The position numbers were made by a program, and so were the translations under genes. Below the pieces are notes generated by a model. That model was not told the origin of the DNA. It did no database searches and saw nothing but the letters and a program-made list of their open reading frames with translations. Of a stretch of 64,000 nucleotides of DNA, positions 1,344 to 51,221 are shown piece after piece. Source of the stretch: Bacillota bacterium (GTDB taxonomy: Bacteria > Bacillota > Desulfitobacteriia > Desulfitobacteriales > JAJXUE01); contig JAJZPO010000001.1 in the NCBI GenBank assembly GCA_021811155.1, positions 1,683 to 65,682 of the forward strand. The letters run 5' to 3'. Position 1 is the stretch's first letter. Each line of letters opens with the position of its first letter.

Positions 1344-1494
1344 ATCCTGCCGAATCTTGACAGGTCACTTTCTTTCGATGTTACAGGGCAGACCCCCATG
1401 CTGGCTTCAGCACCAGCAGAGGATGAAAATGGATTCATAAGGTTATTTTCAGAGTAGAATGGTTCAGCTAAATCTATTCACGGAGGAGTATAAA

Positions 1495-1962
1495 GTGGAC
1501 AAACCAACCTTGGTCCTGGGTGTGATCGGGGCCGATGTTCACGCCGTCGGCAACCGGATTCTGGATTACGCTTTTACCCAGGCCGGTTTCCAGGTAATAA
1601 ATATCGGAGTCCTGGCATCCCAGGAAGAGTTTATCAATGCAGCCATCGAAACTGACGCCCAGGCGCTCCTGGTTTCCTCCCTTTACGGCCACGGGGAAAT
1701 CGACTGCCGGGGGCTGAGGGAAAAATGTGAAGAAGCCGGCATCGGGGACATCCTTATATATGTGGGCGGCAACCTGGTGGTGGGGAAACAGGACTTCGGC
1801 GAGGTGGAGCAGCGCTTTCTTGAGATGGGATTCGACCGGGTATACCCGCCGGGGATTATGCCGGAGCGGCCTATCGCCGATTTGAAGCGGGACTTGGGTC
1901 TCGAGGAAGGAGCCGGTGGTGGGGAACATCCTGCTCATGGACTTCGGCAGCACCTACACTAA
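1495..1962 (+). CDS. glmS: Glutamate mutase (methylaspartate mutase) sigma/S subunit, B12-binding
   Basis: Colinear with clostridial MutS/GlmS ([19 protein letters not shown] with DxHxxG cobalamin motif, [29 protein letters not shown]). SD GGAGGAG at 1482-1488 then GTG 1495; the track ATG 1459 is probably too long. The 3' end overlaps the next gene by 47 nt. Confidence 0.9.
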
Positions 1963-3313
1963 AGTTGCGCTGGCCGACACGGTCAAGTGTGAAATTATGG
2001 GCACTGCCAAGGCTCATACCACGGTGGCCAGCAATATTATGCTGGGGTTAAACGAAGCCCTGGGCAAATTAGGGGTGCAGGGACCCTTTGAAAAAAGACT
2101 TGCCTGCAGCAGCGCCGCAGGCGGCCTTAAGATGGTGGCAGTGGGCCTCGTAAAGGACCTCACAGCTGAGGCGGCACGCCGCGCGGCCTTGGGAGCGGGG
2201 GCCAGAGTCCTGGATGTATTCAGCCATGAGATGACGGATAAGGACCTGGAGAGAATCACTGACCTCAAGCCCGAGATCATCCTCCTCGCCGGCGGCACAG
2301 ACGGGGGCAACAAGGAAATAATCCTGAAAAACGCCCGGACCCTGGCCCGTTTGCCCGTGAGCCTGCCGGTAGTGGTGGCGGGGAACCGGGTGGCGGCGCC
2401 GGAGGCGGCGGAAATCCTCAAGTCCAGGCACGACCCTGTCGTAATCTCCGGCAATGTGATGCCGGAACTGAATGTCCTCCGGGTGGACGAAGCGCGGCTG
2501 GCTATCCGGGAGCTGTTCCTGGCGCAAATTGTCAAGGCTAAGGGGCTGGAGCTGGCGGAGGAGTTTTCCGGCCAGGTCTTGATGCCTACCCCGGCCGCGG
2601 TTTTGAAGGCGGCGGAACTCCTGGCCCGGGGTTGCGGCGATGAGCCGGGGCTGGGCGAGCTTATGGTGGTGGATGTGGGCGGAGCAACCACTGATGTGCA
2701 CTCCATCGCCGTGGGGGACCCTTCCAAAGCGGGGGTGAGTTTGAAAGGGTTGCCCGAGCCTTATGCCAAGCGCACGGTGGAAGGGGATCTGGGGATGCGC
2801 TACAGTTCCATGGCCCTTTTCGAGGCGGCGGGCCGCCGGCTGACCGGCTACCTCGGGACGGACGCGGAAAGCCTCAGGGGATACATCGAGAGTCTCACCC
2901 GTAAGCCGGACTACCTGGCCCAGACGGAGGGAGAAAAGAAAATCGACTCGGGGTTGGGGAGGATCGCGGTGGAAATAGCGGTGGAAAGGCACTGCGGCGC
3001 TTTGGAAGTAATTTATACTCCATTTGGTGCATCCTATATACAGCACGGCAAGGACCTCACTCCTCTAAGAACTGTGATCGGCACAGGGGGAGTGCTGGCG
3101 GGAAATCCGGCGGCGCTGGAAATCCTGCAGGGTGCAGCTTTCGCGCCGGCTGCGCCAAACCTGTTAAAACCGCAGCAGCCCGAGTATTATCTGGATTCCA
3201 GCTACATCATGGCAGGGATGGGGCTTTTGGCGGAGAGCGATCCTCTGGCTGCCCTGAAGATTATGAAAAAGTACATAACGCGTTTAGGAGGAGATCAGCA
3301 TGGAAGTCACTAA
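1916..3313 (+). CDS. glmL: Glutamate mutase reactivase/chaperone MutL/GlmL
   Basis: N-terminal [18 protein letters not shown]-type ATPase motif. The gene sits between the S and E subunit genes as in Clostridium. SD GAGGAAGGAG at 1902-1911 precedes GTG 1916/1919. Confidence 0.85.
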
Positions 3314-4751
3314 CCGGCGTCTGGACCAGGATGAGTTCGAACGGGAGCGGCAGGAAGTTTTGCGCCAGTGGATGACCGGGGGCGAAGTGGACCTGGCTGA
3401 GGCGGTGGAGTATCAGAAGAACCTGCCCAGGCACAAGGTGCTGGCTTACAAGCTGGAGCAGGGTAAGGAACAGGGTATCACCTACGCCCAGCCCCGGGCG
3501 GGAGTGGCCCTAATCAATGAGCATATCGAGCTCTTGCGCTTTTTGCAGGATGAGGGCGGGGCTGACATGCTTCCCACCACCATAGACTCCTACACCAGGC
3601 AGAACCGTTACACCGAAGCACAAGGGGGCATCGAGGAGAGCCGCACTGTGGGGCGCTCCATGCTGAACGGCTTTCCCGCCGTGAACCATGGAGTGAATGC
3701 CTGCCGCAGGGTGGTGGAGTCAGTCAATGTGCCAGTACAGGTGCGGCACGGCACTCCTGATGCCAGACTCCTGGCCGAGATAACTCTTGCCGGCGGGTTT
3801 ACGGACTTTGAGGGTGGTGGAATTTCTTACAATATCCCCTATGCCAAGGATGTTCCGCTGGCAGACACCATCCGGCACTGGCAGTATGTGGACCGCCTGG
3901 TGGGGATGTACGAGGAGAAGGGGGTACGCATCAACCGGGAGCCCTTCGGCCCCCTGACAGGAACTCTGGTGCCGCCCTGCATCTCCCATGCCGTAGCTGT
4001 CATTGAGGCCGTCCTGGCAGTGGAACAGGGCGTGAAAAGCCTTACCCTGGGCTACGGCCAGTGCGGCAACCTCCTGCAGGACGTGGCTGCGGTCCATACC
4101 CTCACGCAACTAGCGGAGGAATATCTTGCGAAGCTGGGGCTGGGCCCGGTAAGCCTGACCACGGTATTTCACCAGTGGATGGGAGGCTTTCCCCAGGACG
4201 AGGCCAAGGCCTACGGCGTGATTTCCTGGGGTGCGGCCACCGCTGCCCTGGCCAAAGCGAGCAAAGTAATTGTTAAAACTCCCCATGAAGCCTTGGGCAT
4301 CCCCACCAAAGAAGCCAATGCTGCGGGTATTCGCGCTACCAAGCAGGTCCTGAACATGCTGAAAGACCAGCGCCTGCCCCGCACCGAGGAGCTGAAGGCG
4401 GAAGAAGATATCATCCGGGCGGAGACCAGGGCCATTCTGGACAAGGTGCTGGAACTGGGGGATGGAGACATGGCCCTCGGGGCTGTGCGCAGTTTCCAGG
4501 CCGGAGTTATCGATGTGCCTTTTGCTCCCAGCAGGTTTAACGCCGGCAAAATCCTGCCGGCCCGGGACCACCAGGGTGCGGTGCGGATTCTCGACTTCGG
4601 CAACGTGCCCTTTGGACAGGAAATCAGGCAGTTCCACCAGGAGATGATCGGGAAGCGGGGCAAGGCCGAATCGCGCGACCCCTCCTTCCAGATGGTGATC
4701 GACGACATCTATGCTATTGGGAAAGGGATGCTTGTAGGGAGACCCAGATAG
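3300..4751 (+). CDS. glmE: Glutamate mutase (methylaspartate mutase) epsilon/E subunit
   Basis: 483-aa ORF of the expected size, in S-L-E gene order. SD GGAGGAG at 3286-3292. 14-nt overlap with glmL. Confidence 0.9.
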
Positions 4752-4790
4752 CTTGCTAGGACAACGGGGACGGTTCTGGGCGTCCTAGCG
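4752..4790 (+). repeat. Conserved-core hairpin repeat (CTAGGAC-stem type)
   Basis: Starts one nt after the glmE stop. CTTGCTAGGAC...GTCCTAGCG encloses GGGGACGGTTCT (4766-4777). Confidence 0.85.
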
Positions 4791-4888
4791 AAAAAAGTAG
4801 ATTAATGGTGGTTCCCTGGGCGAAAATGAGTTCGCCAGTCTTCTAGATTTTAAATCCCGGAAGAGGGATGCCGGCGGGAGGTAATAAC

Positions 4889-6142
4889 GTGAAAATCGTC
4901 GAAGTACTAGCTGCGCCAGGACTTACAGGTTTCTATTTTGATGACCAGAAGGCCATCAAGCTGGGGGCGGAACAAGATGGGTTTTCCTACACCGGGGAGC
5001 CCAAAACCCCTGGCTTTACGGCAGTGCGCCAGCGCGGCGAGTCTATATCCGTGCTGCTTGTGCTTGAGGACGGGCAGGTGGCTTACGGAGACTGTGCCGC
5101 TGTACAGTACTCGGGAGCGGGGGGGCGGGACCCATTGTTCCTGGCGGAAGAGTTTATCCCGTTAATTATGGAAGAAATAGCTCCTCACCTGGAGGGAAGG
5201 GAACTGGACTCCTTCCGGCAGCTGGCCGAAGAAGTTGAAGCCTTGCGCCGCCCCAACGGGGAGGTCTACCACACGGCCATCCGGTATGGGGTGAGCCAGG
5301 CCATCCTGGATGCGGTGGCCAAGGCCCGGCATGTTAGCATGACAGAGATAATCGCCAAGGAGTACGACCTGCCCATTCAGGCTGAGCCGGTGCCGGTGTT
5401 CGCCCAGACCGGGGATGACAGGTATCTGAACGCGGACAAGGCTATCTTGAAGCGGGCGGATGTGCTCCCCCACGGGCTGATAAATAATGTGGAGAGCAAG
5501 CTTGGGCGCCGTGGCGAGAAGCTCATGGACTATGTCCGCTGGCTGAAAAACAGGGTCCTGGAACTGGGGGACCCGGCCTACCGCCCTGTGCTTCACATCG
5601 ATGTCTACGGCACCATCGGCCTTGCCCTCGGGGAGGATACGGAGAGGATGGCTGAGTACCTCGGCCAGTTGGGTGAAGCGGCCCAGCCACTTAAGCTCAG
5701 GATCGAGGGCCCTATGGACGCGGGGAGCAAGGAGGGCCAGATCAGGGCCCTGAAGGAACTTCGCCTGGCTTTGGAGGCGCGGCAGATCCCGGTGGAGATA
5801 GTGGCGGATGAGTGGTGCAACACTTATGAAGACATTGTGGAATTCGTGGACGCAGGAGCGGGCCACATGGTTCAGATCAAGACCCCGGATTTGGGCGGGA
5901 TTCAAAACTCCATAGCCGCGGTGCTCTACGCCAAAAAGCGCGGGGTCAAGGCTTATCTGGGGGGGTCCTGCAATGAAACCGACTGCGGCGGCAGGGCCTG
6001 TGTCCATGTGGCCCTGGCCACCCGCCCTGACCAGATGCTGGCCAAGCCCGGGATGGGTGTGGACGAGGGTTTTATGATTGTACGCAATGAGATGAACCGC
6101 ACCCTGGCCCTGCTGCACCACTTGCTTGCGGGCAGGGATTGA
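4889..6142 (+). CDS. mal: 3-methylaspartate ammonia-lyase (beta-methylaspartase)
   Basis: VKIVEVLAAPGLTGFYFDDQKAIK...ESISVLLVLEDGQVAYGDCAAVQYSGAGGRDPLF follows the clostridial methylaspartase N-terminus almost residue for residue. SD GGGAGG at 4876-4881 then GTG 4889. Confidence 0.92.
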   Translation: MKIVEVLAAPGLTGFYFDDQKAIKLGAEQDGFSYTGEPKTPGFTAVRQRGESISVLLVLEDGQVAYGDCAAVQYSGAGGRDPLFLAEEFIPLIMEEIAPHLEGRELDSFRQLAEEVEALRRPNGEVYHTAIRYGVSQAILDAVAKARHVSMTEIIAKEYDLPIQAEPVPVFAQTGDDRYLNADKAILKRADVLPHGLINNVESKLGRRGEKLMDYVRWLKNRVLELGDPAYRPVLHIDVYGTIGLALGEDTERMAEYLGQLGEAAQPLKLRIEGPMDAGSKEGQIRALKELRLALEARQIPVEIVADEWCNTYEDIVEFVDAGAGHMVQIKTPDLGGIQNSIAAVLYAKKRGVKAYLGGSCNETDCGGRACVHVALATRPDQMLAKPGMGVDEGFMIVRNEMNRTLALLHHLLAGRD

Positions 6143-6182
6143 GGGTCGGGAGTCAGAAGTCAGGAGTCAGGAGTCAGAATGG
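6143..6182 (+). repeat. Tandem heptamer array (GGGTCGG GAGTCAG AAGTCAG GAGTCAG GAGTCAG AATGG)
   Basis: Begins immediately after the mal stop codon. Period-7 repetition read directly. Confidence 0.85.
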
Positions 6183-6270: not shown

Positions 6271-7245
6271 GTGAAAATTGGGCTAACCACCACTGTGCCG
6301 GTGGAAGTGATTTTCGCCGCGGGCCATACTCCCGTGGACATCAACAATATATTTATCGGTGATCAGAACCCCATGCACCTGGTGGAGGAAGCGGAGATTG
6401 CCGGTTACCCGCGCAACGTGTGCGGCTGGATCAAGGGCCTCTATGCTACCGTGCTGCGCGAGGAGGATATCCGGGCCGTGGTGGCTGTGACCCAGGGTGA
6501 CTGCTCCAACACCCATGCCCTGATGGAGACCTGGCAGCACAAGGGGATCGAAATCATTCCCTTTGCTTTTCCCTATGACCGGGACTACGACATGCTGAAG
6601 CTCCAGATTGAGAAGCTGATACAGGTTTTGGGCACGGATTGGGAGCAGACGGTCAAGTGGAAGAAAAATTTGGACGAGGTGCGCAGCCTTGCCTGGGAGC
6701 TGGACCGGCTGACATGGGAAGAGAACCGGGCGACCGGGTTTGAAAACCACCTGTGGCAGGTATCCAGCAGCGACTTCAACGGGGATCCGGACAAATTTGC
6801 CCGGGACCTGGCAGGAGCGCTGGCGGAGGCCCGGGCCAGAGAGCCCCTGGCCCCGGCCCTGCGCCTCGGCTTTATTGGGGTGCCGCCAATAGTGCCTGAG
6901 TTGTACGATTACCTGGAGGCCCAGGGGGCCAGGGTGGTGTTCAATGAGGTGCAGCGCCAGTTCAGCATGCCTTTTCAGGTGGAGGACCTGGTGGAGCAGT
7001 ACCGCCTCTACACCTACCCCTACAATGTCTTCGGCAGGATTGAAGATATCAAGCGCCAGGCTGAGCTGCGCCGCCTGGACGGGTTGATCCACTATACCCA
7101 GAGCTTTTGTTTCCGGCAGATTGAGGACCTGATTATCCGCCAGGAAATCGATTTGCCGATTCTCACCCTGGAGGGGGACAGCCCCACCCGCCTGGACGCC
7201 CGCAGCAAGATGCGGCTGGACTCCTTCATCGAGATGCTTAAATAG
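6271..7245 (+). CDS. 2-hydroxyacyl-CoA dehydratase family (HgdB/BcrB-like, HGD-D) Fe-S protein, single subunit
   Basis: 324 aa. N-terminus GLTTTVPVEVIFAAGHTPV and three spaced Cys (NVCGW, GDCSN, SFCFRQ) as in the D-component of ATP-activated radical dehydratases. Only one such subunit gene is present. Confidence 0.7.
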   Translation: MKIGLTTTVPVEVIFAAGHTPVDINNIFIGDQNPMHLVEEAEIAGYPRNVCGWIKGLYATVLREEDIRAVVAVTQGDCSNTHALMETWQHKGIEIIPFAFPYDRDYDMLKLQIEKLIQVLGTDWEQTVKWKKNLDEVRSLAWELDRLTWEENRATGFENHLWQVSSSDFNGDPDKFARDLAGALAEARAREPLAPALRLGFIGVPPIVPELYDYLEAQGARVVFNEVQRQFSMPFQVEDLVEQYRLYTYPYNVFGRIEDIKRQAELRRLDGLIHYTQSFCFRQIEDLIIRQEIDLPILTLEGDSPTRLDARSKMRLDSFIEMLK

Positions 7246-7265
7246 GCTCTGGGGCAATTCTTTTT

Positions 7266-7291
7266 GGTCGGAATTCAGGAGTCAGAATGGG
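7266..7291 (+). repeat. Heptamer array (GGTCGGAATTCAGGAGTCAGAATGGG)
   Basis: Lies 21 nt after the stop at 7245. Same terminal GAGTCAGAATGG as the arrays at 6143, 7542 and 50396. Confidence 0.8.
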
Positions 7292-7308
7292 TTAAGCCTG
7301 AATCAAGG

Positions 7309-7334
7309 GTGTCAGGGGGACTGTCCCCGTGACA
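7309..7334. repeat. Palindromic repeat GTGTCA-GGGGGACTGTCCCC-GTGACA
   Basis: Imperfect palindrome read directly. Sister copies at 10136-10164 and 50560-50586. Confidence 0.8.
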
Positions 7335-7393
7335 TTGCATGCCGCTACGCGGCACCACTTATGAATGAAACGAGAGCTTGCTAGCAGCAGAGT

Positions 7394-7506
7394 CGTTTGA
7401 TATATCCGGAGAGCGCGATTTTATTTGAAGCGTCCTCACCTTGCGCGATAGCGTTTCGAATCAGAGGACGGTTCAAATTCATGAGCGCCGGAGGATATAT
7501 CAAACG
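7394..7506. repeat. Long imperfect hairpin (~45-nt arms) in the dehydratase-activase spacer
   Basis: CGTTTGATATATCC...ATTTGAAGCGTCCTC pairs with GAGGACGGTTCAAAT...GGATATATCAAACG. The right arm carries the family core (GAGGACGGTTC, 7464-7474). Confidence 0.7.
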
Positions 7507-7541
7507 GACCCCAGCAGACCCGAACTGACCCAATGTTTCAG

Positions 7542-7565
7542 GGCAGGAGTCAGGAGTCAGAATGG
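7542..7565 (+). repeat. Heptamer array (GGCAGGAGTCAGGAGTCAGAATGG)
   Basis: Direct repeat of the 7266-7291 array. It flanks the long hairpin on the other side. Confidence 0.8.
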
Positions 7566-7586
7566 TTTTGGAAGGGATGTTGGAGT

Positions 7587-8345
7587 TTGACTGTAAGTTG
7601 CGGGATTGACCTGGGCAGCCGCAGTGTTAAAGTGGCTGTCCTGCAGGATGAAAAGATACTGGAACTGAAAACCTTCGATACCATTGAGTTTTACCGGAAT
7701 TACAGCCGCCGGGTTGAGGGTGATTTAAGGGTGGATCTGTCCGGACTGGGGGTACCGGAGACGGACAGGCTGGTCTCCACCGGTTATGGGCGCAATGCCC
7801 TGAACCTGGCCGGGGCCAGGGTAATCCCGGAAATCAAGGCTCATCTCCTGGGAGCAATTTTCCAAACCGGGCTCAAGGACTTCACCCTGCTTGACATGGG
7901 AGGTCAGGACAGCAAGATCATCAAGGTGCAGCGGGGCAGAATGGCGGACTTTTTGACCAATGACAAGTGTGCCGCGTCCACGGGCAGGTACCTGGAGAAC
8001 ATGGCCAATGTCCTGGGTGTCACGCTGGAAGAGCTGGGCAGGTACTGGCAGGAGCCGGTAGAGCTTAATTCCACCTGTGCCGTGTTCGGTGAAAGCGAAC
8101 TTATTGGAAGAATTGTGGACGGCCATGACATAGGAAATCTCGCGGCAGGGGTAAACTATACGATTTTCCGGCGGATTCAGCCCATGCTCAGACAGTTGAT
8201 GAGCCCGGTCATCGTCTTTACCGGCGGGGTGGCAGGCAACTTGGCCCTGCGGCGGATTATTGAGAGCGAGACCGGGGCCGAGGTTGTGGTGCCGGAACAT
8301 CACCAGCACAACGGGGCCATAGGAGCGGCGGTACAGAAGCTATGA
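7587..8345 (+). CDS. Acyl-CoA dehydratase activase (HgdC/BcrAD/BadFG-family ATPase)
   Basis: SCGIDLGSRSVKVAVL N-terminal ASKHA motif, DKCAASTGRYLE and STCAVFGESE cluster-Cys motifs. SD GGAAGGGA at 7571-7578 then TTG 7587; the track ATG 7533 lies inside the repeat array. Confidence 0.85.
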   Translation: MTVSCGIDLGSRSVKVAVLQDEKILELKTFDTIEFYRNYSRRVEGDLRVDLSGLGVPETDRLVSTGYGRNALNLAGARVIPEIKAHLLGAIFQTGLKDFTLLDMGGQDSKIIKVQRGRMADFLTNDKCAASTGRYLENMANVLGVTLEELGRYWQEPVELNSTCAVFGESELIGRIVDGHDIGNLAAGVNYTIFRRIQPMLRQLMSPVIVFTGGVAGNLALRRIIESETGAEVVVPEHHQHNGAIGAAVQKL

Positions 8346-10106: not shown

Positions 10107-10219
10107 CAGAAGTCAGGAGTCAGGAGTCAGAATAAAGTGTCAGGGGGACTGTCCCTGTGACACTCTGGTTCATTCATCAGTGGTGCCGTGAAGCGGCATG
10201 CAAGTCTGAATTCCGACCC
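10107..10219. repeat. Composite repeat: forward heptamer array, GTGTCA palindrome, GAATGAA/GCATGCCGC module, reverse heptamer array
   Basis: CAGAAGTCAGGAGTCAGGAGTCAGAAT (10107-10133), palindrome (10136-10164), a module that is the reverse complement of 7336-7372, then AGTCTGAATTCCGACCC (10203-10219). The ends are inverted relative to each other. Confidence 0.75.
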
Positions 10220-10257
10220 TTAAGGTAAGCAAATAAGAATGCGAGGTGGCAGAAGAG

Positions 10258-21569: not shown

Positions 21570-21598
21570 GAGGAATTCAGGAGTCAGAAGTCAGAATA
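21570..21598 (+). repeat. Heptamer array (GAGGAATTCAGGAGTCAGAAGTCAGAATA)
   Basis: Period-7 units read directly in the RND/P-loop divergent spacer. Confidence 0.8.
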
Positions 21599-21650
21599 GG
21601 ACAAAGGGGACGGTTCCGTTGGACAAAGGGGACGGTTCCGTTTGTCCTAG
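21599..21650 (+). repeat. Tandem pair of conserved-core hairpin repeats (GGACAAA-stem type)
   Basis: GGACAAAGGGGACGGTTCCGTT occurs twice, followed by TGTCCTAG. Cores at 21606 and 21628. Confidence 0.85.
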
Positions 21651-21748
21651 TGGGATTCACGCTATATGTGACCATCAGCCAGTTGAGGTTCCGGGTTGAA
21701 GCAAGAACCGTCACCAGACACGCTAAGCATATCTGTATCGACACCATT

Positions 21749-21783
21749 TGCTAGGACGTTTAGAACCGTCCCCGTTGTCCTAG
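21749..21783 (-). repeat. Conserved-core hairpin repeat (CTAGGAC-stem type), inverted orientation
   Basis: TTGCTAGGACGTTTAGAACCGTCCCCGTTGTCCTAGA is the reverse complement of the 1305/4752 type. Core at 21762-21773. Confidence 0.85.
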
Positions 21784-24174: not shown

Positions 24175-24225
24175 ACTCAGGGGTCGGAACTCGGGGGTCA
24201 GAACTCAGAACTCAGGAGTCAGAAT
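24175..24225 (+). repeat. Heptamer array, 7 units (TCAGGGG TCGGAAC TCGGGGG TCAGAAC TCAGAAC TCAGGAG TCAGAAT)
   Basis: Starts at the first nt after the rdgB stop codon. Period 7 read directly. Confidence 0.85.
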
Positions 24226-24636: not shown

Positions 24637-24842
24637 CGGCCTCTCCCTCCTAATACTATTGTAACCTACGGGACAGGAAATAGACCAGGGAATTTTCCGC
24701 AACTTATCGACTCTCTTTTCACATGCTGCCTGGGCTCCGGGGAACCTCCTCAAGCGCCCGTTTTGCTGCAGTGAGGATCTTTTGTCACTTGGGGATGGTT
24801 CTGTGCTGACTCACTATTATGGAGCCGAAGCCGCTCAAGGGC

Positions 24843-25875: not shown

Positions 25876-25952
25876 CGGGGTATAGCGCAGTTTGGTAGCG
25901 CGCCTGCCTTGGGAGCAGGAGGCCGGGGGTTCAAATCCCTCTGCCCCGACCA
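25876..25952 (+). tRNA. tRNA-Pro (anticodon UGG)
   Basis: CGGGGTA/TGCCCCG acceptor stem, anticodon loop CTTGGGA, GGTTCAAATCC T-arm, encoded CCA. Confidence 0.95.
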
Positions 25953-25961
25953 TAACTCGAT

Positions 25962-25996
25962 GTTCGAAGTTTGAGGTTCGAGGTTCGATTTAGAAT
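25962..25996. repeat. Heptamer array (GTTCGAA GTTTGAG GTTCGAG GTTCGAT TTAGAAT) in the tRNA spacer
   Basis: Period-7 units. Reverse complement of the 254-283 array. Ends in AGAAT like the GAGTCAG arrays. Confidence 0.8.
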
Positions 25997-26059
25997 AATA
26001 GATTTTGAGCCTGGTATCCTCAGGGTTTGTAGCTTCGGAGAGAGTTTTCCCGTTGATGA

Positions 26060-26136
26060 GCGCCTGTAGCTCAGTTGGATAGAGCATCTGCCTTCTAAGC
26101 AGGTTGTCGGGAGTTCGAATCTCTCCAGGCGCGCCA
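26060..26136 (+). tRNA. tRNA-Arg (anticodon UCU)
   Basis: GCGCCTG/CAGGCGC acceptor stem, anticodon loop CTTCTAA, GAGTTCGAATCTC T-arm, encoded CCA. Confidence 0.95.
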
Positions 26137-26145
26137 AAACAATAT

Positions 26146-26222
26146 GGTGGATGTGGCGAAGTGGTTAACGCACCGGATTGTGGTTCCGGCATTCGGGGGT
26201 TCGAAACCCCTCATCCACCCCA
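26146..26222 (+). tRNA. tRNA-His (anticodon GUG)
   Basis: Extra 5' G(-1) paired to the discriminator C, anticodon loop TTGTGGT, GGTTCGAAACC T-arm, encoded CCA. Confidence 0.95.
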
Positions 26223-26264
26223 TTCGCGTATAAATGGTTAGCGTTTTGCTAACCGTAATTATAT

Positions 26265-26339
26265 TGGGGTGTCGCCAAGCGGTAAGGCACCAGACTTTGA
26301 CTCTGGCATGCGTTGGTTCGAATCCAGCCACCCCAGCCA
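26265..26339 (+). tRNA. tRNA-Gln (anticodon UUG)
   Basis: TGGGGTG/CACCCCA acceptor stem, anticodon loop CTTTGAC, GGTTCGAATCC T-arm, encoded CCA. Confidence 0.95.
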
Positions 26340-26358
26340 GATAAAATTAATAAGTTTT

Positions 26359-26441
26359 GCGGGAGTGGCGGAACTGGCAGACGCACCAGATTTAGGTTCT
26401 GGCGGGCAACCGTGCAGGTTCAAGTCCTGTCTCCCGCACCA
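26359..26441 (+). tRNA. tRNA-Leu (anticodon UAG)
   Basis: GCGGGAG/CTCCCGC acceptor stem, anticodon loop TTTAGGT, long variable arm (class II), encoded CCA. Confidence 0.95.
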
Positions 26442-33624: not shown

Positions 33625-33703
33625 CAGAAGTCAGAAGTCAGAAGTCAGAAGACAGGAGTCAGGAGTCAGGAGTAAGAAGTTGGAAGCCAGAAGCCAGAAA
33701 GCC
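33625..33703 (+). repeat. Longest heptamer array (~11 units: AGAAGTC x3, AGAAGAC, AGGAGTC x2, AGGAGTA, AGAAGTT, GGAAGCC, AGAAGCC...)
   Basis: Starts 3 nt after the hypE stop. Period 7 read directly, with progressive degeneration toward the 3' side. Confidence 0.85.
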
Positions 33704-33754: not shown

Positions 33755-33786
33755 ATTCTGACTCCTGACTACTGACTCCTGAATTC
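33755..33786 (-). repeat. Inverted heptamer array (ATTCTGACTCCTGACTACTGACTCCTGAATTC)
   Basis: Reverse complement GAATTCAGGAGTCAGTAGTCAGGAGTCAGAAT. It can pair (19 bp, 1 mismatch) with 33654-33672. Confidence 0.85.
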
Positions 33787-44545: not shown

Positions 44546-45762
44546 ATAAACTCAATTATCAGAAAATATTTCTCCTGGGGTTCGGCTTTTTCGCGGTGAG
44601 CATCACCTGGTCCGTCTACAATGCTTTTATGCCGAAAATACTGAGCAACTTTATTCATAGCGCCACCCTTATCGGGTTTATTATGACTATCGACAATTAC
44701 CTGGCGCTCTTCATTCAGCCGGCTGTCGGTCTGAAAAGCGACAAAATCTCGACCCGGTTCGGCAAGAGAATGCCGTTTATTATGGTGGGTATGCCTTTGG
44801 CCACCCTCTTTTTGGTTCTGTTGGCCAATTACCACAACCTGGCGACTTTACTGGTCTTCCTCGTGCTGATGAATCTCTCCATGAGCGTTTTCCGCTCGCC
44901 CGTTATCGCTTTGATGCCTGATTTGACGTACAGCGAACATAGGAGCAAGGCGAACAGCGTCATTAACCTGATGGGCGGGATCGGTGCGGTGATCGCCTAC
45001 TTTGCAGGCTCGCTGCTATGGGACAAGAGTCAGAAGTACCCGTTTTATCTGGCGGCGGCGCTGATGGCCGTGTCTTTTTTCGTCCTCTATACCTTTATCA
45101 AGGAAAAACGGGACGTAACCGGCTATGAATCGAGCTCAGGGCGGGTGAAGATTGGGCTGCTGGAAGGGCTGCGAGCCAGCGGCAATGCCAAAAACGTCAT
45201 CTACTTGCTGCTGGCCATTTGTACCTGGTTTATAGGCTACCAGGGGGTGGAAGCTTTTCTCACGTTATACGGCGTGAATCTCCTTGGCCTGAAGACAAGT
45301 GTGGCTGCTATGTCTTTTACCTTTATCTCCCTCTCATTTTTGCTTTTTGCTTTCCCCGCCGGGATCATGGGCGCCAAGTTCGGTAAGAAAAAGACGATCA
45401 TCGCCGGCGTGGCGGGGATCATTATCAGTTTCGCAGTCCTGGCCTTGCTCCGGAACCTGTTGGCGGTGCGGGCCGTGCTGGTCGTGACCGGGTTTTTCTG
45501 GGCGCTGATCAACATCAATTCCTACCCATTTGTGGCTGATATGGCGCCCGAGGGTCAGACCGGAGTTTACACAGGGCTGTACTATCTGGCATCCTCGGTG
45601 GCGGCCATAGTTTCCCCGCCGTTATTAGGTGCGTTGATTGACACTGCGGGTTACGCTTATATGTTCGCTTATGCCTCGGTCTGCTTTGTTTTGGCCCTTG
45701 TGTTTATCCTTAAGGTCAAGGAAGTCAAACCCGGTAACGTTGTGAATCGGACAGTTCTTTGA
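44542..45762 (+). CDS. MFS transporter
   Basis: 406 aa, 12 predicted TM helices. ATGA start/stop overlap with glpQ. Confidence 0.8.
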   Translation: MNKLNYQKIFLLGFGFFAVSITWSVYNAFMPKILSNFIHSATLIGFIMTIDNYLALFIQPAVGLKSDKISTRFGKRMPFIMVGMPLATLFLVLLANYHNLATLLVFLVLMNLSMSVFRSPVIALMPDLTYSEHRSKANSVINLMGGIGAVIAYFAGSLLWDKSQKYPFYLAAALMAVSFFVLYTFIKEKRDVTGYESSSGRVKIGLLEGLRASGNAKNVIYLLLAICTWFIGYQGVEAFLTLYGVNLLGLKTSVAAMSFTFISLSFLLFAFPAGIMGAKFGKKKTIIAGVAGIIISFAVLALLRNLLAVRAVLVVTGFFWALININSYPFVADMAPEGQTGVYTGLYYLASSVAAIVSPPLLGALIDTAGYAYMFAYASVCFVLALVFILKVKEVKPGNVVNRTVL

Positions 45763-45790
45763 CGGGGTAACCCTTAAGTTCAAGGAAGAG
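45759..45790 (+). repeat. 32-nt duplicate of an internal clpX segment (31/32 identical to 43477-43508)
   Basis: TTGACGGGGTAACCCTTAAGTTCAAGGAAGAG versus the clpX sequence TTGACGGGGTAACCCTTGAGTTCAAGGAAGAG. This copy contains the MFS stop codon. Confidence 0.85.
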
Positions 45791-45795
45791 ACAGA

Positions 45796-45830
45796 GTGAG
45801 TCAGTTGGGGACGGTTCTTGGTTGACTCAC
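45796..45830 (+). repeat. Conserved-core hairpin repeat (GTGAGTCA-stem type)
   Basis: GTGAGTCA...TGACTCAC encloses GGGGACGGTTCT (45807-45818). Twin copy at 50464-50498. Confidence 0.85.
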
Positions 45831-45838
45831 TTTCCGTG

Positions 45839-45905
45839 GGATAAAGGGGACGGTTCTGTTTGTCCTATCCACTAGGACCAACAGAACCGTCCCCTTTATC
45901 CTAGC
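45839..45905. repeat. Inverted pair of conserved-core repeats forming a ~30-bp-arm hairpin
   Basis: GGATAAAGGGGACGGTTCTGTTTGTCCTA (45839-45868) and its near reverse complement CTAGGACCAACAGAACCGTCCCCTTTATCCTAGC (45872-45905). Confidence 0.85.
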
Positions 45906-45999
45906 TTAGTTTTTTAGGCGGGAGGATAAATGGCGGAGGGCTGGCAATACTAGTAGGTGTTGGATTTATACTGCCTGTTTACCCGGAAAGGAGCGTACC

Positions 46000-47700
46000 A
46001 TGGGGGATATGAGTTTTGCGGCCGGTTTGGGCGGCCTGATAGGATTTATTCAGATATTTTTTGCCATTGTCATCGGCCTGTACTTCTGGAATCTGTTGAA
46101 AAGCCAGCAGGGTAATAAGGTTGCGGTGGAAAAGGAATCCCGCAAAGAGTTGGAAAAGCTGCAGAAGATGCGCAAAATATCTCTGACAGAACCACTGGCG
46201 GAAAAAACCCGGCCGTCAACTTTTGATGAGATTATCGGTCAAAATGAGGGTATCAAGGCTCTGCGGGCAGCCTTGTGCGGCCCCAATCCCCAGCACGTGA
46301 TAATTTACGGGCAGCCTGGGGTGGGCAAGACCGCCGCGGCACGCCTGGTGCTGGAGGAGGCCAAGCGCAATCCCATGTCCCCTTTCAAGGAGGACGCAAA
46401 ATTCATCGAAATAGACGGAGCTACAGCCCGGTTTGACGAGCGGGGCATCGCCGACCCGCTCATAGGTTCGGTCCACGACCCGATTTATCAGGGAGCAGGC
46501 CCCTTGGGCATGGCCGGAATTCCCCAGCCAAAGCCCGGGGCTGTGACCAAGGCCCACGGGGGAATGCTCTTTATCGATGAAATCGGGGAACTGCACCCGA
46601 TTCAAATCAACAAGCTCTTAAAGGTGCTGGAAGACCGCAGGGTAATTCTCGAGAGCGCCTATTACAGTTCGGAAGACCACAATATTCCTTCCCACATCCA
46701 TGATATTTTCCAGAACGGCCTGCCGGCGGACTTCCGCCTGGTGGGGGCGACAACCCGCATGCCGGATGAAATCCCGCCGGCCGTGCGTTCGCGCTGCCTG
46801 GAGGTTTTCTTCCGCTCCCTTAATCCGGAGGAAGTAGCTATCATTGCCGCCAACGCCGCTCGTAAGGTAAACCTGGAGCTTGAGGAAAAAGCCCTGGAGG
46901 TTCTGAAACGCTATGCCACCAACGGGCGGGAAGCGGTGAATATCATTCAGATTGCGGCGGGTATTGCCTTGGGAGACGGGTCCCAGGTCATCCGCACCCA
47001 GGATATCGAATGGGTGGTTAATTCAGGCCAGTATACCCCCCGCATGGAAAAGAAGGTGCCGCAGCAGCCCCAGGTCGGGTTGGTTAACGGTCTGGCTGTT
47101 TACGGCCCGAACATGGGGACTTTGATTGAGCTGGAAACGGGTATAATTCCGGCCAAAAAGGGCAAGGGTGAGCTGAAGGTAACCGGTATCGTGGAAGAAG
47201 AGGAACAGGGCGGGCGGGACGGAAAAACCATCCGCCGCAAGTCCATGGTCAAAGGGTCGGTGGAAAATGTGCTGACGGTACTGCGCCGTCACTTGGACGT
47301 GGAGCCTGCGAATTATGACATCCACCTCAATTTCCCGGGCGGGGTGCCCATCGACGGGCCGTCCGCCGGGGTGACCATCGCCACAGCCGTGTTCTCCGCT
47401 ATCAAAAACATCCCGGTGGATAACCGGGTGGCCATGACCGGAGAGGTCTCGATCCGGGGCCAGGTAAAGCCCATCGGTGGGGTTGTGGCCAAGGTGGAGG
47501 CCGCCAAACGGGCGGGCTGCCGCAAAGTAATTATTCCCAAAGAAAACTGGCAGGAAATTTTCACTGAGATGACCGGGATTGAAATCATCCCGGTTGAAAC
47601 CCTGCAGGAAGTGATAAAGCACGCCCTTGTACGGGAAGTCCCGGGCAAGCAGCAGGAGCTTCTGCCGGGATTTGACCTCTTGAGCGCTTCCCATATGTAA
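46000..47700 (+). CDS. lonB: Sporulation-type ATP-dependent protease LonB
   Basis: N-terminal TM helix, AAA+ Walker A GQPGVGKT, C-terminal Lon protease domain (DGPSAGV with catalytic Ser; GGVVAKVEAAKRAG). Positioned between clpX and lon as in Bacillus. Confidence 0.88.
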   Translation: MGDMSFAAGLGGLIGFIQIFFAIVIGLYFWNLLKSQQGNKVAVEKESRKELEKLQKMRKISLTEPLAEKTRPSTFDEIIGQNEGIKALRAALCGPNPQHVIIYGQPGVGKTAAARLVLEEAKRNPMSPFKEDAKFIEIDGATARFDERGIADPLIGSVHDPIYQGAGPLGMAGIPQPKPGAVTKAHGGMLFIDEIGELHPIQINKLLKVLEDRRVILESAYYSSEDHNIPSHIHDIFQNGLPADFRLVGATTRMPDEIPPAVRSRCLEVFFRSLNPEEVAIIAANAARKVNLELEEKALEVLKRYATNGREAVNIIQIAAGIALGDGSQVIRTQDIEWVVNSGQYTPRMEKKVPQQPQVGLVNGLAVYGPNMGTLIELETGIIPAKKGKGELKVTGIVEEEEQGGRDGKTIRRKSMVKGSVENVLTVLRRHLDVEPANYDIHLNFPGGVPIDGPSAGVTIATAVFSAIKNIPVDNRVAMTGEVSIRGQVKPIGGVVAKVEAAKRAGCRKVIIPKENWQEIFTEMTGIEIIPVETLQEVIKHALVREVPGKQQELLPGFDLLSASHM

Positions 47701-47706
47701 GCAAAA

Positions 47707-47736
47707 CCGGGGCAAATGGCCCCGGCCTTTCTTTTT
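47707..47736 (+). terminator. Rho-independent terminator after lonB
   Basis: CCGGGGC, loop AAATG, GCCCCGG stem, followed by CCTTTCTTTTTG. Confidence 0.7.
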
Positions 47737-47760
47737 GTCCTGGTGACGCATGCTAAAACG

Positions 47761-47822
47761 ATTCTGAATTCCGACCTTGAATTGAGCCCATGAGCCGATT
47801 TCTGAATTCTGAGTTCCGACCC
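47761..47822 (-). repeat. Two reverse-orientation heptamer arrays
   Basis: ATTCTGAATTCCGACC (47761-47776) and GATTTCTGAATTCTGAGTTCCGACCC (47797-47822). Their reverse complements read GGTCGGAATTCAGAAT and GGGTCGGAACTCAGAATTCAGAAATC. Confidence 0.8.
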
Positions 47823-47970
47823 TTAAGTACAGCCTAAAAGTTTTGGTATACCCCCCGGGGGTTTTTGCCGAAGTGGGGTGGCGGGCCGCGGTAAATTATG
47901 CTAGAATATATTTACATCGGTTTTTGCAAACTAAGGGATGGATTTGTTTCAACCCTTGGAGGTGGAAAGT

Positions 47971-50382
47971 ATGCTTGAAGAGAGCAAACCCTTGGTACTG
48001 CGACAGCTGCCCCTTCTACCCCTCAGAGGGCTTTTAGTTTTTCCTTATATGGTAATCCACCTGGATGTGGGCAGGGACAAGTCGATTAAGGCGATTGAAG
48101 AGGCCATGATTCAGGAGCGGTCCATCTTTTTGGCTACCCAGCGGGATGCCAGCGTCGAGGAGCCGGGCGAGGCTGATATTTACAACATTGGCACCGTGGC
48201 CGAGATTAAGCAGCTCCTGAAGCTTCCCGGCGGCACTATCCGCGTTTTGGTGGAAGGCATTGCCAGGGCCAGAGTGGAAAATTTTCTCAGCTACGAACCC
48301 TATATGAAGGTTCTGGTACAGGAATACGAGGAAGAACAGAGGCGGACACCGGAGGTGGAAGCGCTTACCCGCAGCCTGACCAACCAGTTTGAACAGTATG
48401 TGAAGGTGAGCAAGAAGATTCCGCCGGAAACTGTCGGCACTGTTTTGGCGGTGGAAGATCCGGGGCGCCTGGCTGATATTGTAGCATCCCATTTGAGCCT
48501 GAAGGTGGAGGATAAGCAGCTAATCCTGGAGGCAATCGGCCTTGCCAAACGGCTGGAGACGATTTGCGAGATTCTGGCCCGGGAAATGGAAATCCTGGAA
48601 CTGGAGCGCAAAATCAGTATCCGGGTGCGCAAGCAGATGGAAAAGACCCAAAAAGAATATTACCTGCGTGAGCAGATGAAGGCAATTCAAAAGGAACTGG
48701 GCGAGAAGGACGAACGCCAGGCCGAGGCTGAGGAATTCAGGGAAAAAATCGCCAAGGCCAAATTCCCCAAGGATGTGGAAGAGAAAGCCCTGAAGGAAGT
48801 GGAACGGCTGGAGAAAATGCCTCCCATGGTGGCGGAGGCTACGGTCGTACGCAACTACCTGGAATGGCTCCTGGCTTTGCCCTGGCATAAAACCACCCGG
48901 GACAGGATTAACATCAAACTGGCTGAGGAAATTCTGGATGAAGACCATTACGGGCTGGAAAAGGTTAAGGAAAGAATTATCGAATACCTGGCTATCCGCA
49001 AACTGGCCAACAAAATGAAGGGGCCGATAATCTGCTTTGTGGGCCCGCCTGGGGTCGGCAAAACTTCCCTGGCCAAGTCCATTGCCCGGGCCCTGGAACG
49101 CAAATTTATCCGGATGTCTCTCGGCGGCGTTAGGGATGAGGCAGAGATACGCGGTCATCGCCGCACTTATGTGGGAGCCCTGCCCGGTAGGATAATTCAG
49201 GGTATGCGCCAGGCCGGCACCAAAAACCCGGTTTTTCTCCTGGATGAGATTGACAAGATGAGTTCTGATTTTCGGGGAGACCCGGCTTCCGCCCTTCTGG
49301 AAGTGCTGGACCCGGAACAAAACTGCAACTTCAGCGACCATTTCATTGAGGCTACCTTTGATTTGTCCAGCGTGATGTTCATCACTACGGCTAATACCCT
49401 GCACACGGTGCCGCGGCCTCTTCTGGACCGGATGGAGGTAATCCGCATCGCGGGCTATACGGAAGAGGAAAAGGTCAAGATTGCGGAGAAATACCTCCTG
49501 CCCAAGCAGATCAAAAACCACGGCCTGAAAGCAGAACAGTTGGAGGTACCGGAAGCGACCCTTCTACGCCTGGTCAGGGAATACACGCGGGAGTCGGGGG
49601 TGCGCAACCTGGAGCGTGAAATCGCCAACCTGTGCCGTAAGACCGCTGCCAGGGTGGTTAAGAAACATGTCAAGTTCCTGAAGATTGAGCCGGAGACCCT
49701 GCCCGATTTCCTGGGGGTACCCAGGTTCCGCTTCGGTGTTGCCGCCAAGGCTCCGGAAGTGGGTTCCGCCACAGGCCTGGCCTGGACCGAGGTGGGCGGG
49801 GATGTGTTAAGCATTGAAGTTACGGTCTTTCCGGGTAATGGCAAGCTGACTCTTACCGGGCAGCTGGGGGATGTGATGAAGGAATCAGCCCAGGCCGGTT
49901 ACAGTTATATCCGTTCGGTGGCCAAGAGCCTGGAGATTCCGGAAGACTTTTATCAGAAGATGGATGTGCACATCCACGTGCCCGAGGGGGCTATCCCCAA
50001 GGACGGGCCCTCGGCAGGTATTACCATGGCCACTGCTTTGGCTTCCGCATTGTCTTACCGGGCGGTGCGCAGCGACCTGGCCATGACCGGAGAGATTACC
50101 TTAAGGGGCAAAGTCCTGCCTGTGGGCGGTATCAAGGAAAAAGTGCTGGCCGCGCGAAGGGCCGGTGTCACAACTATCATTCTGTGTGAGGAAAACAGGA
50201 AGGACCTGGAGGAAGTGCCGCCTGACGTGCGGCAGGATTTGAAGTTCGTCTTCGTGGAGCATATGGATGAAGTTCTGGCCAACGCCCTGGTGCCCGCGGT
50301 AAAGGAATATAAGTCTGAGTATAGCGAGGTGCCGCTGCACCTGGAGGGGATAACGACGATCCAGCCTACGGTAGACCTGTAA
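47971..50382 (+). CDS. lon: ATP-dependent protease Lon (LonA)
   Basis: [27 protein letters not shown]-domain, Walker [10 protein letters not shown], protease domain [22 protein letters not shown] then ATG 47971. Confidence 0.95.
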
Positions 50383-50395
50383 GGGAGGCTTATGG

Positions 50396-50427
50396 GTTGG
50401 ACTTCTGGGTCGGAATACAGAATGGGT
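50396..50427 (+). repeat. Degenerate heptamer array (GGTTGGACTTCTGGGTCGGAATACAGAATGGG)
   Basis: Lies 14 nt after the lon stop. Same ...TCGGAAT.CAGAATGGG ending as 7266-7291. Confidence 0.7.
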
Positions 50428-50432
50428 TGAGT

Positions 50433-50586
50433 AGGACACCGGGGACGGTTCTCGTTGTCCTAGTGAGTCAGTTGGGGACGGTTCTTGATTGACTCACTTT
50501 TGTCAGAGTCACTTGGGGATGGCGATTGGTTGACTCCCCCTTTGTGTCAGACGTGAGAGTGTCAGAGGGACTGTCCCCGTGACACC
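50433..50586 (+). repeat. Four concatenated hairpin repeats of different stem types
   Basis: TAGGACA..TGTCCTA (50433-50463, core at 50442); GTGAGTCA..TGACTCAC (50464-50498, core at 50475); GAGTCA..TGACTC with degenerate core GGGGATGGCGAT (50507-50537); GTGTCAGAGGGACTGTCCCCGTGACAC (50560-50586). Confidence 0.85.
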
Positions 50587-50609
50587 CTGAAAAGGCTGGT
50601 AATTACGGT

Positions 50610-51221
50610 ATGAAGATTAGTTCCAGTGAATTTGTCATCAGCGCGGTTGGGCCTAAACAGTACCCGGCAACCGGCCTGCCGGAGGTGGCTCTGGTGGGCC
50701 GCTCCAATGTAGGGAAGTCCTCGCTGATCAACTGCTTTGTGAACAGGCGTAATTTTGCCCGCACCAGTTCCAGACCTGGCAAGACGGGGACCTTAAATTA
50801 CTACCTTATCAACAATGCCTGGTATTTCGTTGATTTGCCAGGCTATGGTTTTGCCCAGGTCTCAAGGGAAACCAAGGCTCAATGGGCAAAAATGATTGAA
50901 GGATACCTGCAAAACCGTCAGGAGCTCCGGGCGGTAATTCAACTTGTGGATATCCGTCATCCTCCCTCGGAAGATGACCGTACAATGTACGACTGGTTGC
51001 TGAACAGGGGGATTCCTGTTCTGATTGTTGCTACCAAGGCGGACAAGATTTCGCGGGGCCAGACGGTCAGGCAGCTGCAGCAGATCAAACAGGCGCTGGA
51101 CTTGCCCGGCACGGATGTAATTCTGCCCTTTTCCGCCGAAACGGCCCTGGGGCGGGAAGAGCTGCACAGCCTGGTGGCTGAGATTACCGTGACGGAAGTT
51201 CCGGGTGAACCGACTGTATGA
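50610..51221 (+). CDS. engB: Ribosome-biogenesis GTPase EngB/YsxC/YihA
   Basis: GRSNVGKSSLIN G1 motif, DLPGYG G3 motif, TKADK G4 motif. Located downstream of lon as in Bacillus. Confidence 0.92.
   Translation: MKISSSEFVISAVGPKQYPATGLPEVALVGRSNVGKSSLINCFVNRRNFARTSSRPGKTGTLNYYLINNAWYFVDLPGYGFAQVSRETKAQWAKMIEGYLQNRQELRAVIQLVDIRHPPSEDDRTMYDWLLNRGIPVLIVATKADKISRGQTVRQLQQIKQALDLPGTDVILPFSAETALGREELHSLVAEITVTEVPGEPTV

Follow-up and report, generated by a model that had tools for sequence, protein, structure and literature searches.

The 64-kb stretch of DNA analyzed here, from an uncultured Bacillota bacterium (contig JAJZPO010000001.1; the whole stretch is termed the window, and its own numbering is used throughout) carries the genes tig-clpP-clpX-lonB-lon-engB and a cluster for glutamate fermentation by the methylaspartate pathway. 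The genes for glutamate mutase (B12-binding subunit and MutE) and methylaspartate ammonia-lyase occupy 1459-6142, with hairpins in two of the operon gaps, and a 2-hydroxyglutaryl-CoA dehydratase-like gene with its activator follows the methylaspartate cluster at 6271-8345. Scattered among the genes of the window is a family of short hairpins that share an 11-nucleotide (nt) core, GGGGACGGTTC, and these hairpins are the subject of this analysis. An initial annotation had reported the core in at least 10 copies, always between genes and on both strands. We found 10 exact matches and 4 more with one mismatch, compared with 1.5 ± 1.3 matches at no more than one mismatch in dinucleotide shuffles of the window (largest value 5; none of 100 shuffles reached 14). 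The exact cores start at 1318, 4766, 21606, 21628, 21763(-), 45807, 45846, 45884(-), 50441, and 50474; the positions first reported were right to within 1 nt, four of them being displaced by that much. All 10 exact cores, two of them on the - strand, are intergenic and are spread over five intergenic regions, as judged from a crude greedy map of open reading frames (ORFs) that left 13.3% of the window without ORF cover.

The geometry of the unit is constant: a left arm, the 11-nt core directly 3' of it, 2 nt, and a right arm. The loop thus measures 13 nt and opens with the near-invariant GGGGACGGTTC, while the closing stem comprises 5-10 bp and its sequence differs between copies. Three stem types had been distinguished at the outset. 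They reduce to two frames, namely TAGGAC/GTCCTA (frame 1) and GAGTCA/TGACTC with inner G.T wobbles (frame 2), since the third type, GGAYAAA/TTTGTCC (here GGACAAA/TTTGTCC), is frame 1 with the inner 3 bp paired too. For two pairs of copies at separate loci, identity over 39-41 nt amounts to 95% and 97%, and nine window copies score 26-34 bits against the covariance model of the family, whose training set included the window's own copies. The stems contain CTAG, and the avoidance of this tetranucleotide pointed out in the initial annotation is evident in the window (37 sites, against 245 expected from base composition or 72 from a second-order model); 10 of the 37 sites lie inside hairpin blocks.

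The individual units differ in setting and in preservation. On the + strand, the unit at 1308-1340 (core 1318-1328; 28.7 bits) has the stem (TTG)CTAGGAC/GTCCTAG(CAA), reaching 1305-1343, and lies 55 nt past the stop codon of a GntR-family gene, ahead of the gene for the glutamate mutase B12-binding subunit; as single-stranded DNA (ssDNA) it folds with -9.4 kcal/mol (z = -4.1). The + strand unit at 4756-4788 (core 4766-4776; 30 bits) has the same stem type, is 95% identical to that copy (family D2), and its full stem begins 2 nt after the stop codon of the mutE-like gene (4751). At 21599-21650 (+), the left arm and core are tandemly duplicated with a perfect 22-nt period (2.0 copies, 100% matches; cores at 21606 and 21628), and the duplication ends in one complete unit, 21618-21650, with the stem GGACAAA/TTTGTCC (31.3 bits). 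The - strand unit at 21751-21783 (core 21763-21773; stem CTAGGAC/GTCCTAG; 26 bits) lies in an intergenic region from which an AcrB-family gene (-) and an ORF (+) diverge. The + strand unit at 45797-45829 (core 45807-45817; 28.6 bits), with the stem GTGAGTCA/TGACTCAC, serves as the reference for family D4. It is followed by an inverted, REPIN-like doublet at 45836-45904, in which 45836-45868 (+; 34.4 bits) faces 45872-45904 (-; 31.9 bits) with the 3' sides together. This pair had been read as one long hairpin, and 45836-45906 indeed folds as such, with arms of about 30 bp (-31.6 kcal/mol, z = -12).

Between lon and engB, four units are strung together at 50431-50588, as had been seen earlier. 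The first two are well preserved: 50431-50463 (+; core 50441-50451; stem TAGGAC/GTCCTA; 32.7 bits) and 50464-50496 (+; core 50474-50484; stem GTGAGTCA/TGACTCAC; 28.9 bits), the latter being 97% identical to the copy at 45795. The third, at 50503-50541 (+; D4, 72%), is degenerate; it retains the GAGTCA/TGACTC arms and their spacing, its core has decayed to GGGGATGGCGA, and the covariance model gave no match to it. The fourth, at 50556-50588 (D6), is a palindromic "sister" form, GTGTCA-GAGGGAC-T-GTCCCC-GTGACA, with a folding energy of -7.6 kcal/mol and weak covariance-model matches on both strands. The two other sister copies that had been proposed are also real: GTGTCA-GGGGGAC-T-GTCCCC-GTGACA at 7306-7338 (-9.8 kcal/mol, z = -3.6) and a palindrome at 10134-10166 (15.3 bits; -10 kcal/mol) with a heptamer array directly before it. 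In one related locus (L061), the form stem-GGGGAC-N-GTCCCC-stem takes the downstream-repeat position of a transposase gene, and because of this position we regard the sister form as a palindromized variant of the same hairpin family. The list of degenerate copies required revision: the copy placed at 7464 is not supported, as it shows one mismatch, lacks a proper stem, and is not matched by the covariance model, whereas two had been missed, namely a GAGTCA-type unit with the core GGGGATGGTTC at 24781-24813 (+; family D4, 74%; 9.3 bits, E = 2.6) and a core fragment, GGTGACGGTTC, without a clear stem at 21703-21715 (-; partial match, 9.2 bits).

The array and the other hairpins also bear on assembly. 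Contigs carrying engB from three independent short-read assemblies (Logan, L002-L004) stop about 139 nt upstream of engB, inside the array (near window position 50471), and the hairpin repeats fragment short-read assemblies of the source organism. A 20.6-kb stretch of the window is identical to a contig of the metagenome-assembled genome (MAG) GCA_027356595.1.

The proposal that the stems covary while remaining self-complementary was examined with a gapless alignment, of unoptimized register, of 130 distinct hairpins: the 10 window copies and 120 that flank genes in contig and metagenome loci. Standard pairs filled 73.0% of the cells of the 8-bp stem, compared with 50.4 ± 1.2% after shuffling (none of 500 shuffles reached 73.0%) and 37-49% when slid. 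The covariation score was 0.584, against 0.218 for shuffled and 0.14-0.20 for slid alignments, and double changes occurred at all 8 stem pairs (269 cells, against 116 shuffled). Invariant columns are confined to the loop, and no conserved bases occur outside the stem. When the two hairpins that flank one gene, upstream and downstream, are compared, 5.2 of 6 left-arm bases agree, against 2.76 ± 0.19 for random pairings. The scattered hairpins form a real family of fixed geometry with covarying stems.

Copies elsewhere were sought by scanning one genome per species with the pattern GGGGACGGTTC-N5-GTCCTA. Unrelated phyla gave chance matches, whereas repeated matches were found in Bacillota: Neobacillus niacini, N. 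drentensis, N. jeddahensis, Fredinandcohnia humi, F. quinoae, Bacillus timonensis, and several Clostridia MAGs. Two MAGs from close relatives of the source organism carry the window's own stem types. The window's own copies did not appear among the matches, so that the source genome seems to be absent from the collection scanned. At the matched loci there are further copies that the pattern had not selected, with the same core and other complementary arms (e.g., GGACCAG...CTGGTCC). In F. humi, a 253-aa ORF with matches to Pfam Y1_Tnp and NCBIfam REP_Tyr_transpos has hairpins on either side, and in contigs from a Clostridia MAG, Pelotomaculum, and Syntrophothermus hairpins lie on both sides of a Y1_Tnp gene, with stems such as CAACCA/TGGTTG. 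The hairpin-flanked Y1_Tnp genes of the named organisms encode 252-253 aa.

A scan of metagenome contigs, in which the core was counted at no more than one mismatch, added 80 transposase loci. The core occurs within 200 nt upstream in 60 of the 71 loci with enough upstream DNA, almost always on the gene strand and with a modal distance of 62-67 nt before the transposase start; downstream, it is present in 52 of 68 loci, mostly inverted and 7-50 nt past the stop codon. Three proteins considered as candidates for the enzyme of the source genome, P0021, P0066, and P0111, proved to come from other MAGs, and their genes are each again flanked by hairpins. The core is tightly associated with the enzyme gene in other organisms. 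One contig (L132) holds two paralogous Y1 genes 2 kb apart, at 160-870 (236 aa) and 3001-3759 (252 aa), each with its own stem (AGACA and AAACCA, respectively) and the same loop, along with a Y1 fragment of 65 aa nearby. Neighboring copies in the related loci form 58 tandem pairs, 21 inverted doublets of +/- order, and 2 of -/+ order.

The upstream hairpin adjoins promoter-like sequences. In 36 of 56 distinct loci (among the related loci L038-L129), its right arm runs into a -35-like TTGAC(A), followed by an extended -10-like TGnTAT..T box and then by a GAGGTG ribosome-binding site. The repeat thus appears to contain the promoter of the transposase gene, an arrangement suggestive of autoregulation. 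The same TTGAC is present in the right arm of the window's GAGTCA-type units (TTGACTCAC).

The protein encoded by the hairpin-flanked genes belongs to a large family, with 7309 relatives at E ≤ 1e-5. The best 120 of these are 49-70% identical and come from Bacilli and Clostridia; in some sources they bear the name "REP element-mobilizing transposase RayT" (REP, repetitive extragenic palindromic; RAYT, REP-associated tyrosine transposase). One such protein was found at a single conserved locus across 20 contigs. The HUH motif (NHxHLL) and the tyrosine motif (RYIHQNP) are invariant in the family. The only NCBIfam match was REP_Tyr_transpos (NF047646), with 73-86 bits against a cutoff of 80, so that 2 of 7 members pass. 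A sequence search of the PDB matched only 4ER8, the Escherichia coli TnpA_REP, whose structure was determined bound to a REP hairpin. The AlphaFold model (pLDDT 88.5) likewise has 4er8_A as its best Foldseek match (E = 1.7e-8, TM 0.76, rmsd 2.4 Å), with the transposases of IS608, ISDra2, and IS200 next at E of about 3e-5. The enzyme has the fold and the catalytic residues of REP-type Y1/HUH transposases. About 100 extra C-terminal residues with a conserved GLSTRQIARLTGISR are helical in the AF2 model and match the helix-turn-helix (HTH) families HTH_26, HTH_38, and HTH_3 of Pfam weakly; the C-terminal motif of the approximately 252-aa Y1 protein is GLSTRQIARLTG. Bac_DnaA_C, HTH_23, and HTH_28, the Pfam families named by Quentin et al., were not among these C-terminal matches.

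The initial annotation had suggested REP-like elements served by a RAYT-type enzyme. The covariation, the association with a Y1/HUH gene, and the structural match to TnpA_REP support this suggestion, with the refinement that the enzyme groups with the TIRYTs rather than with the classical RAYTs. TIRYTs were defined in Di Nocera 2013 (PMC3733652) as RAYT-like genes with flanking inverted repeats at constant distance that share GGGGWSAS and occur as singles, dimers, and clusters; the published examples that we examined are mostly from Proteobacteria and Acidobacteria. Quentin 2018 (PMC6006769) equated them with subclass 2.1 of TnpA_Y1, comprising long proteins with a C-terminal HTH, and reported that automatic and manual searches alike had found no REP-like structures beside subclass 2.1 genes; the REP filter used in that study called for loops of 2-5 nt and for GTAG or GTGG placed 0-2 nt from the stem on its 5' side. 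In a BLASTP comparison with the sequences of Additional file 5 of PMC3733652, the Bacillota protein P0047 proved to be far nearer to TIRYTs (36-40% identity with E = 1e-29 to 1e-35; for the TIRYTs as a whole E = 1e-23 to 1e-35, apart from 3e-13 for one TIRYT of the Acidobacteria group) than to classical RAYTs (E = 2e-11 to 4e-8). The Bacillota system further resembles TIRYTs in the length of the protein with its C-terminal helical/HTH extension, in the inverted repeats that bracket the gene at a constant distance (62-67 nt), and in the scattering of copies as singles, dimers, and clusters. Measured against GGGGWSAS, the GGGGACGG of the hairpins fits 7 of 8 positions, having G instead of A at position 7. 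In view of the grouping of the enzyme with the TIRYTs and of this partial fit, we assign the hairpin family to the TIRYT/TIR kind as a Bacillota member. One of the published TIRYT examples, "dau 2153", is presumably from Desulforudis, judging by its KEGG code. What sets the Bacillota repeat apart from subclass 2.1 as published is its stem-loop form, with arms that covary and an 11-nt loop motif that is invariant across Bacilli and Clostridia.

Other known systems share some of these features. Like the classical REPs and REPINs that accompany RAYTs in E. coli and Pseudomonas (PMC2817692, PMC3333891, PMC3479197, PMC8266576), the window hairpins are short, dense extragenic palindromes in tandem and inverted-doublet arrangements, the units in related organisms are inverted around a single Y1/HUH gene, and 4ER8 is the nearest solved structure to the enzyme. 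The Bacillota system differs in that the conserved bases are those of a 13-nt loop, that stems are not the same from lineage to lineage or even throughout one genome, and that the enzyme is about 90-100 aa longer than a classical RAYT. With the IS200/IS605 elements (IS608, ISDra2), the system has in common the HUH/Y1 fold, hairpins as presumed recognition elements, and the proposed strand logic. In contrast to those elements, whose end hairpins share one strand, the flanking units in Bacillota are inverted; the protein has 252 aa rather than the roughly 130-155 aa of an IS200/IS605 TnpA, no sign of multicopy identical elements was seen, the one protein traced in 20 contigs being at one conserved locus, and the PDB sequence search gave no match to IS608 or ISDra2. 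CGTC-tagged REPs were considered because the reverse complement of the core contains CGTC, but these have the CGTC unpaired at one end, loops of 4-5 nt, and no associated transposase. Neither the geometry nor the gene association fits attC sites, CRISPR repeats, or tRNA-like T-arms.

In the literature that we examined, no repeat family is described for the Bacillota enzymes. Nunvar 2010 does not mention Firmicutes, the main text of Di Nocera 2013 (PMC3733652) contains no mention of Firmicutes, Clostridia, or relevant Bacillus, and the only note on Clostridia in Bertels 2017 is that Group 1 RAYTs occur there too. Literature searches on RAYTs and REPINs in Firmicutes, Clostridia, and Bacilli returned nothing specific, and searches for the core sequence on either strand brought up primers in unrelated papers and nothing else.

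We consider it likely that the window hairpins are REP-like ("TIR-type") non-autonomous repeats that belong to a RAYT/TIRYT-type Y1/HUH ssDNA transposase found widely among Bacillota. A unit would fold when the strand that carries it is single-stranded, by analogy on the transiently single-stranded lagging-strand template. The enzyme would then recognize the loop motif, and possibly also the lineage-specific stem, and would cut and rejoin the DNA; cleavage and mobilization of this kind could spread the units into intergenic DNA as singles, head-to-tail arrays, and inverted doublets. We infer that the source genome still encodes the enzyme. As known for REPs, any effects on the mRNA of the hairpin-carrying operons may be side effects. 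The strand that acts as lagging-strand template has positive GC skew, and it is on this strand that enzymes of the IS200/IS605 type act. The + strand of the window shows positive GC skew throughout and is, by this geometry, the lagging-strand template. If the - strand unit at 21763 is set aside, GGGGACGGTTC lies on the + strand in all 8 copies other than the second half of the doublet, an orientation that fits the lagging-strand-template model, though it is confounded with gene direction.

For what is known of TIRYTs, the addition is that the "TIR" is a covarying stem-loop with a loop motif that is invariant across two classes. Descriptions of REP/RAYT systems have so far come almost entirely from Proteobacteria and a few further phyla, and a single 11-nt loop motif is now tied, across Bacilli and Clostridia, to an enzyme branch reported to lack nearby REP-like structures. 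A more tentative idea, which we regard as possible rather than probable, is that these enzymes use a distinct mode of recognition within the REP world: the Y1 enzyme, perhaps via its C-terminal HTH, would read the invariant apical loop GGGGACGGTTC, while the stem, co-evolving with each enzyme copy, would provide an address specific to the lineage or the paralog. If so, the TIRYT or subclass 2.1 enzymes, reported without REP-like structures, would gain a defined single-stranded substrate, and REPIN-like replicators would be extended to Gram-positive bacteria. In practical terms, the gains are a concrete substrate for biochemistry, a search pattern for the annotation of Gram-positive genomes, and a reason for the breaks in short-read assemblies. 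For the window itself, the interpretation as transposase-served repeats means that the hairpins would not be a new regulatory RNA.

Several observations weigh against this interpretation. Neither the 5' GTAG/GTGG tag nor the short loop that classical REPs possess is present in the hairpins, and some units fold poorly as isolated ssDNA (-2 kcal/mol, z of about -1). A strand test based on G.T and A.C stem pairs showed no clear preference, with counts of 98 and 53, compared with 118 and 89 expected. The strand bias of the hairpins coincides with gene direction, 41 of the 54 ORFs being on the + strand. Finally, no enzyme gene was found for this genome and, as the initial annotation had already stated, the window contains no transposase.

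The last of these points leaves room for the view that the window copies are relics of a lost enzyme and are now shaped only by drift, slippage, and recombination. The decayed or truncated copies at 50503-50541, 24781-24813, and 21703-21715 and the 22-nt slippage duplication at 21599-21642 also speak for it, and we find it unlikely, though deserving of some weight, given that copies at different loci are still 95% and 97% identical over 39-41 nt, that nine of them match the family model at the scores given above (with window copies in the training set), that the window's stem types recur in two related MAGs, and that the enzyme family, with its 7309 proteins, occurs very widely in Bacillota. 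An explanation by function in RNA appears improbable. According to it, the hairpins were chiefly selected, independently of any transposase, as mRNA stabilizers, processing sites, or attenuators in operons, as might be supposed from the orientation of most window copies along the flanking genes and between co-directional genes, from the copy 2 nt past the mutE-like stop codon, from the G.T wobble pairs in the stems, and from the effect of REPs on mRNA decay (PMC3733652). However, a divergent promoter region holds three of the copies, two copies are on the opposite strand, and a role purely in RNA explains neither the tandem, doublet, and decayed copies nor why the hairpins of 92 loci invariably flank a transposase gene on both sides. 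At the gathering score, Rfam gave no match to the hairpins in the window, where only five tRNAs passed the threshold, and the sub-threshold matches on the long doublet were to generic hairpin models. No predicted terminator overlapped the hairpins in a scan of 45700-50700; their loops are of 13-19 nt, and no hairpin is terminator-like or carries a T tail.

The extra C-terminal helical domain of the enzyme, with its weak HTH matches, could also be taken to mean that the 11-mer is a double-stranded operator, bound by this domain or by a host protein, with an incidental potential to form a hairpin. That the upstream copy overlaps the gene's own -35-like promoter element, TTGAC, in 36 of 56 loci would suit autoregulation of this kind, yet a duplex site gives no reason for arms that change and remain complementary (double changes at 8 of 8 pairs; 269 against 116 cells), nor for arrays and doublets distant from any promoter. 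We therefore hold such an operator to be very doubtful as a general explanation, and for the copy at the gene promoter it can coexist with the transposase-served repeats. That the units are miniature inverted-repeat transposable elements or fragments of a conventional DDE insertion sequence is scarcely credible. They are short, intergenic, and repeated, and a DDE transposase lies near some copies at one related locus (L031), but each unit consists of one stem-loop of 33-39 nt whose conserved loop is non-palindromic, rather than of a body between terminal repeats, inspection of the flanks by eye revealed no consistent target duplication, and it is the Y1 enzyme, not a DDE enzyme, whose gene is systematically associated with the units.

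The hairpins of the window are accompanied by other short repeats. Intergenic heptamer arrays of the type (CAGGAGT/CAGAAGT)n, with up to 10.7 copies, occur at 6145-6179, 7544-7560, 10107-10130, 21573-21596, 24175-24224, and 33625-33699, and in complement at 33758-33782. They often stand directly 5' of a hairpin or sister palindrome, the left arm of GAGTCA-type hairpins is identical to their unit GAGTCAG, and the complement (CTCCTGA) adjoins hairpins in a related MAG (L018, L035); heptamer repeats reminiscent of these arrays exist in other bacteria. Two further modules are reused around the hairpins, one being a small hairpin, GCATGCCGC-NNN-GCGGCAC, joined to CACTTATGAATGAAAC, and the other GGTCGGAATTCAG. 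Such modules are located at 7335-7372 (+), 10164-10200 (reverse complement), and 1285-1300 (part), and at 7262-7274 with 10205-10220 and 47805-47840. Their order and orientation around the hairpins vary, giving a mosaic like that of BIMEs (bacterial interspersed mosaic elements), where hairpins are likewise mixed with other short repeat modules. In contrast to the BIMEs of E. coli, the accompanying modules are the heptamer arrays and the two other small hairpin modules, which are unrelated to BIME linkers, and we know of no factors that bind them. Two more tandem repeats of 7 nt were observed apart from the hairpins. One (TCGAACC, 4.4 copies, 95% matches) occupies 253-283, at or just before the start of the GntR-family ORF (294-1250), and the other, a TCGAGGT array of 4.6 copies at 25957-25988, lies between the first two tRNAs of a five-tRNA cluster at 25876-26438.

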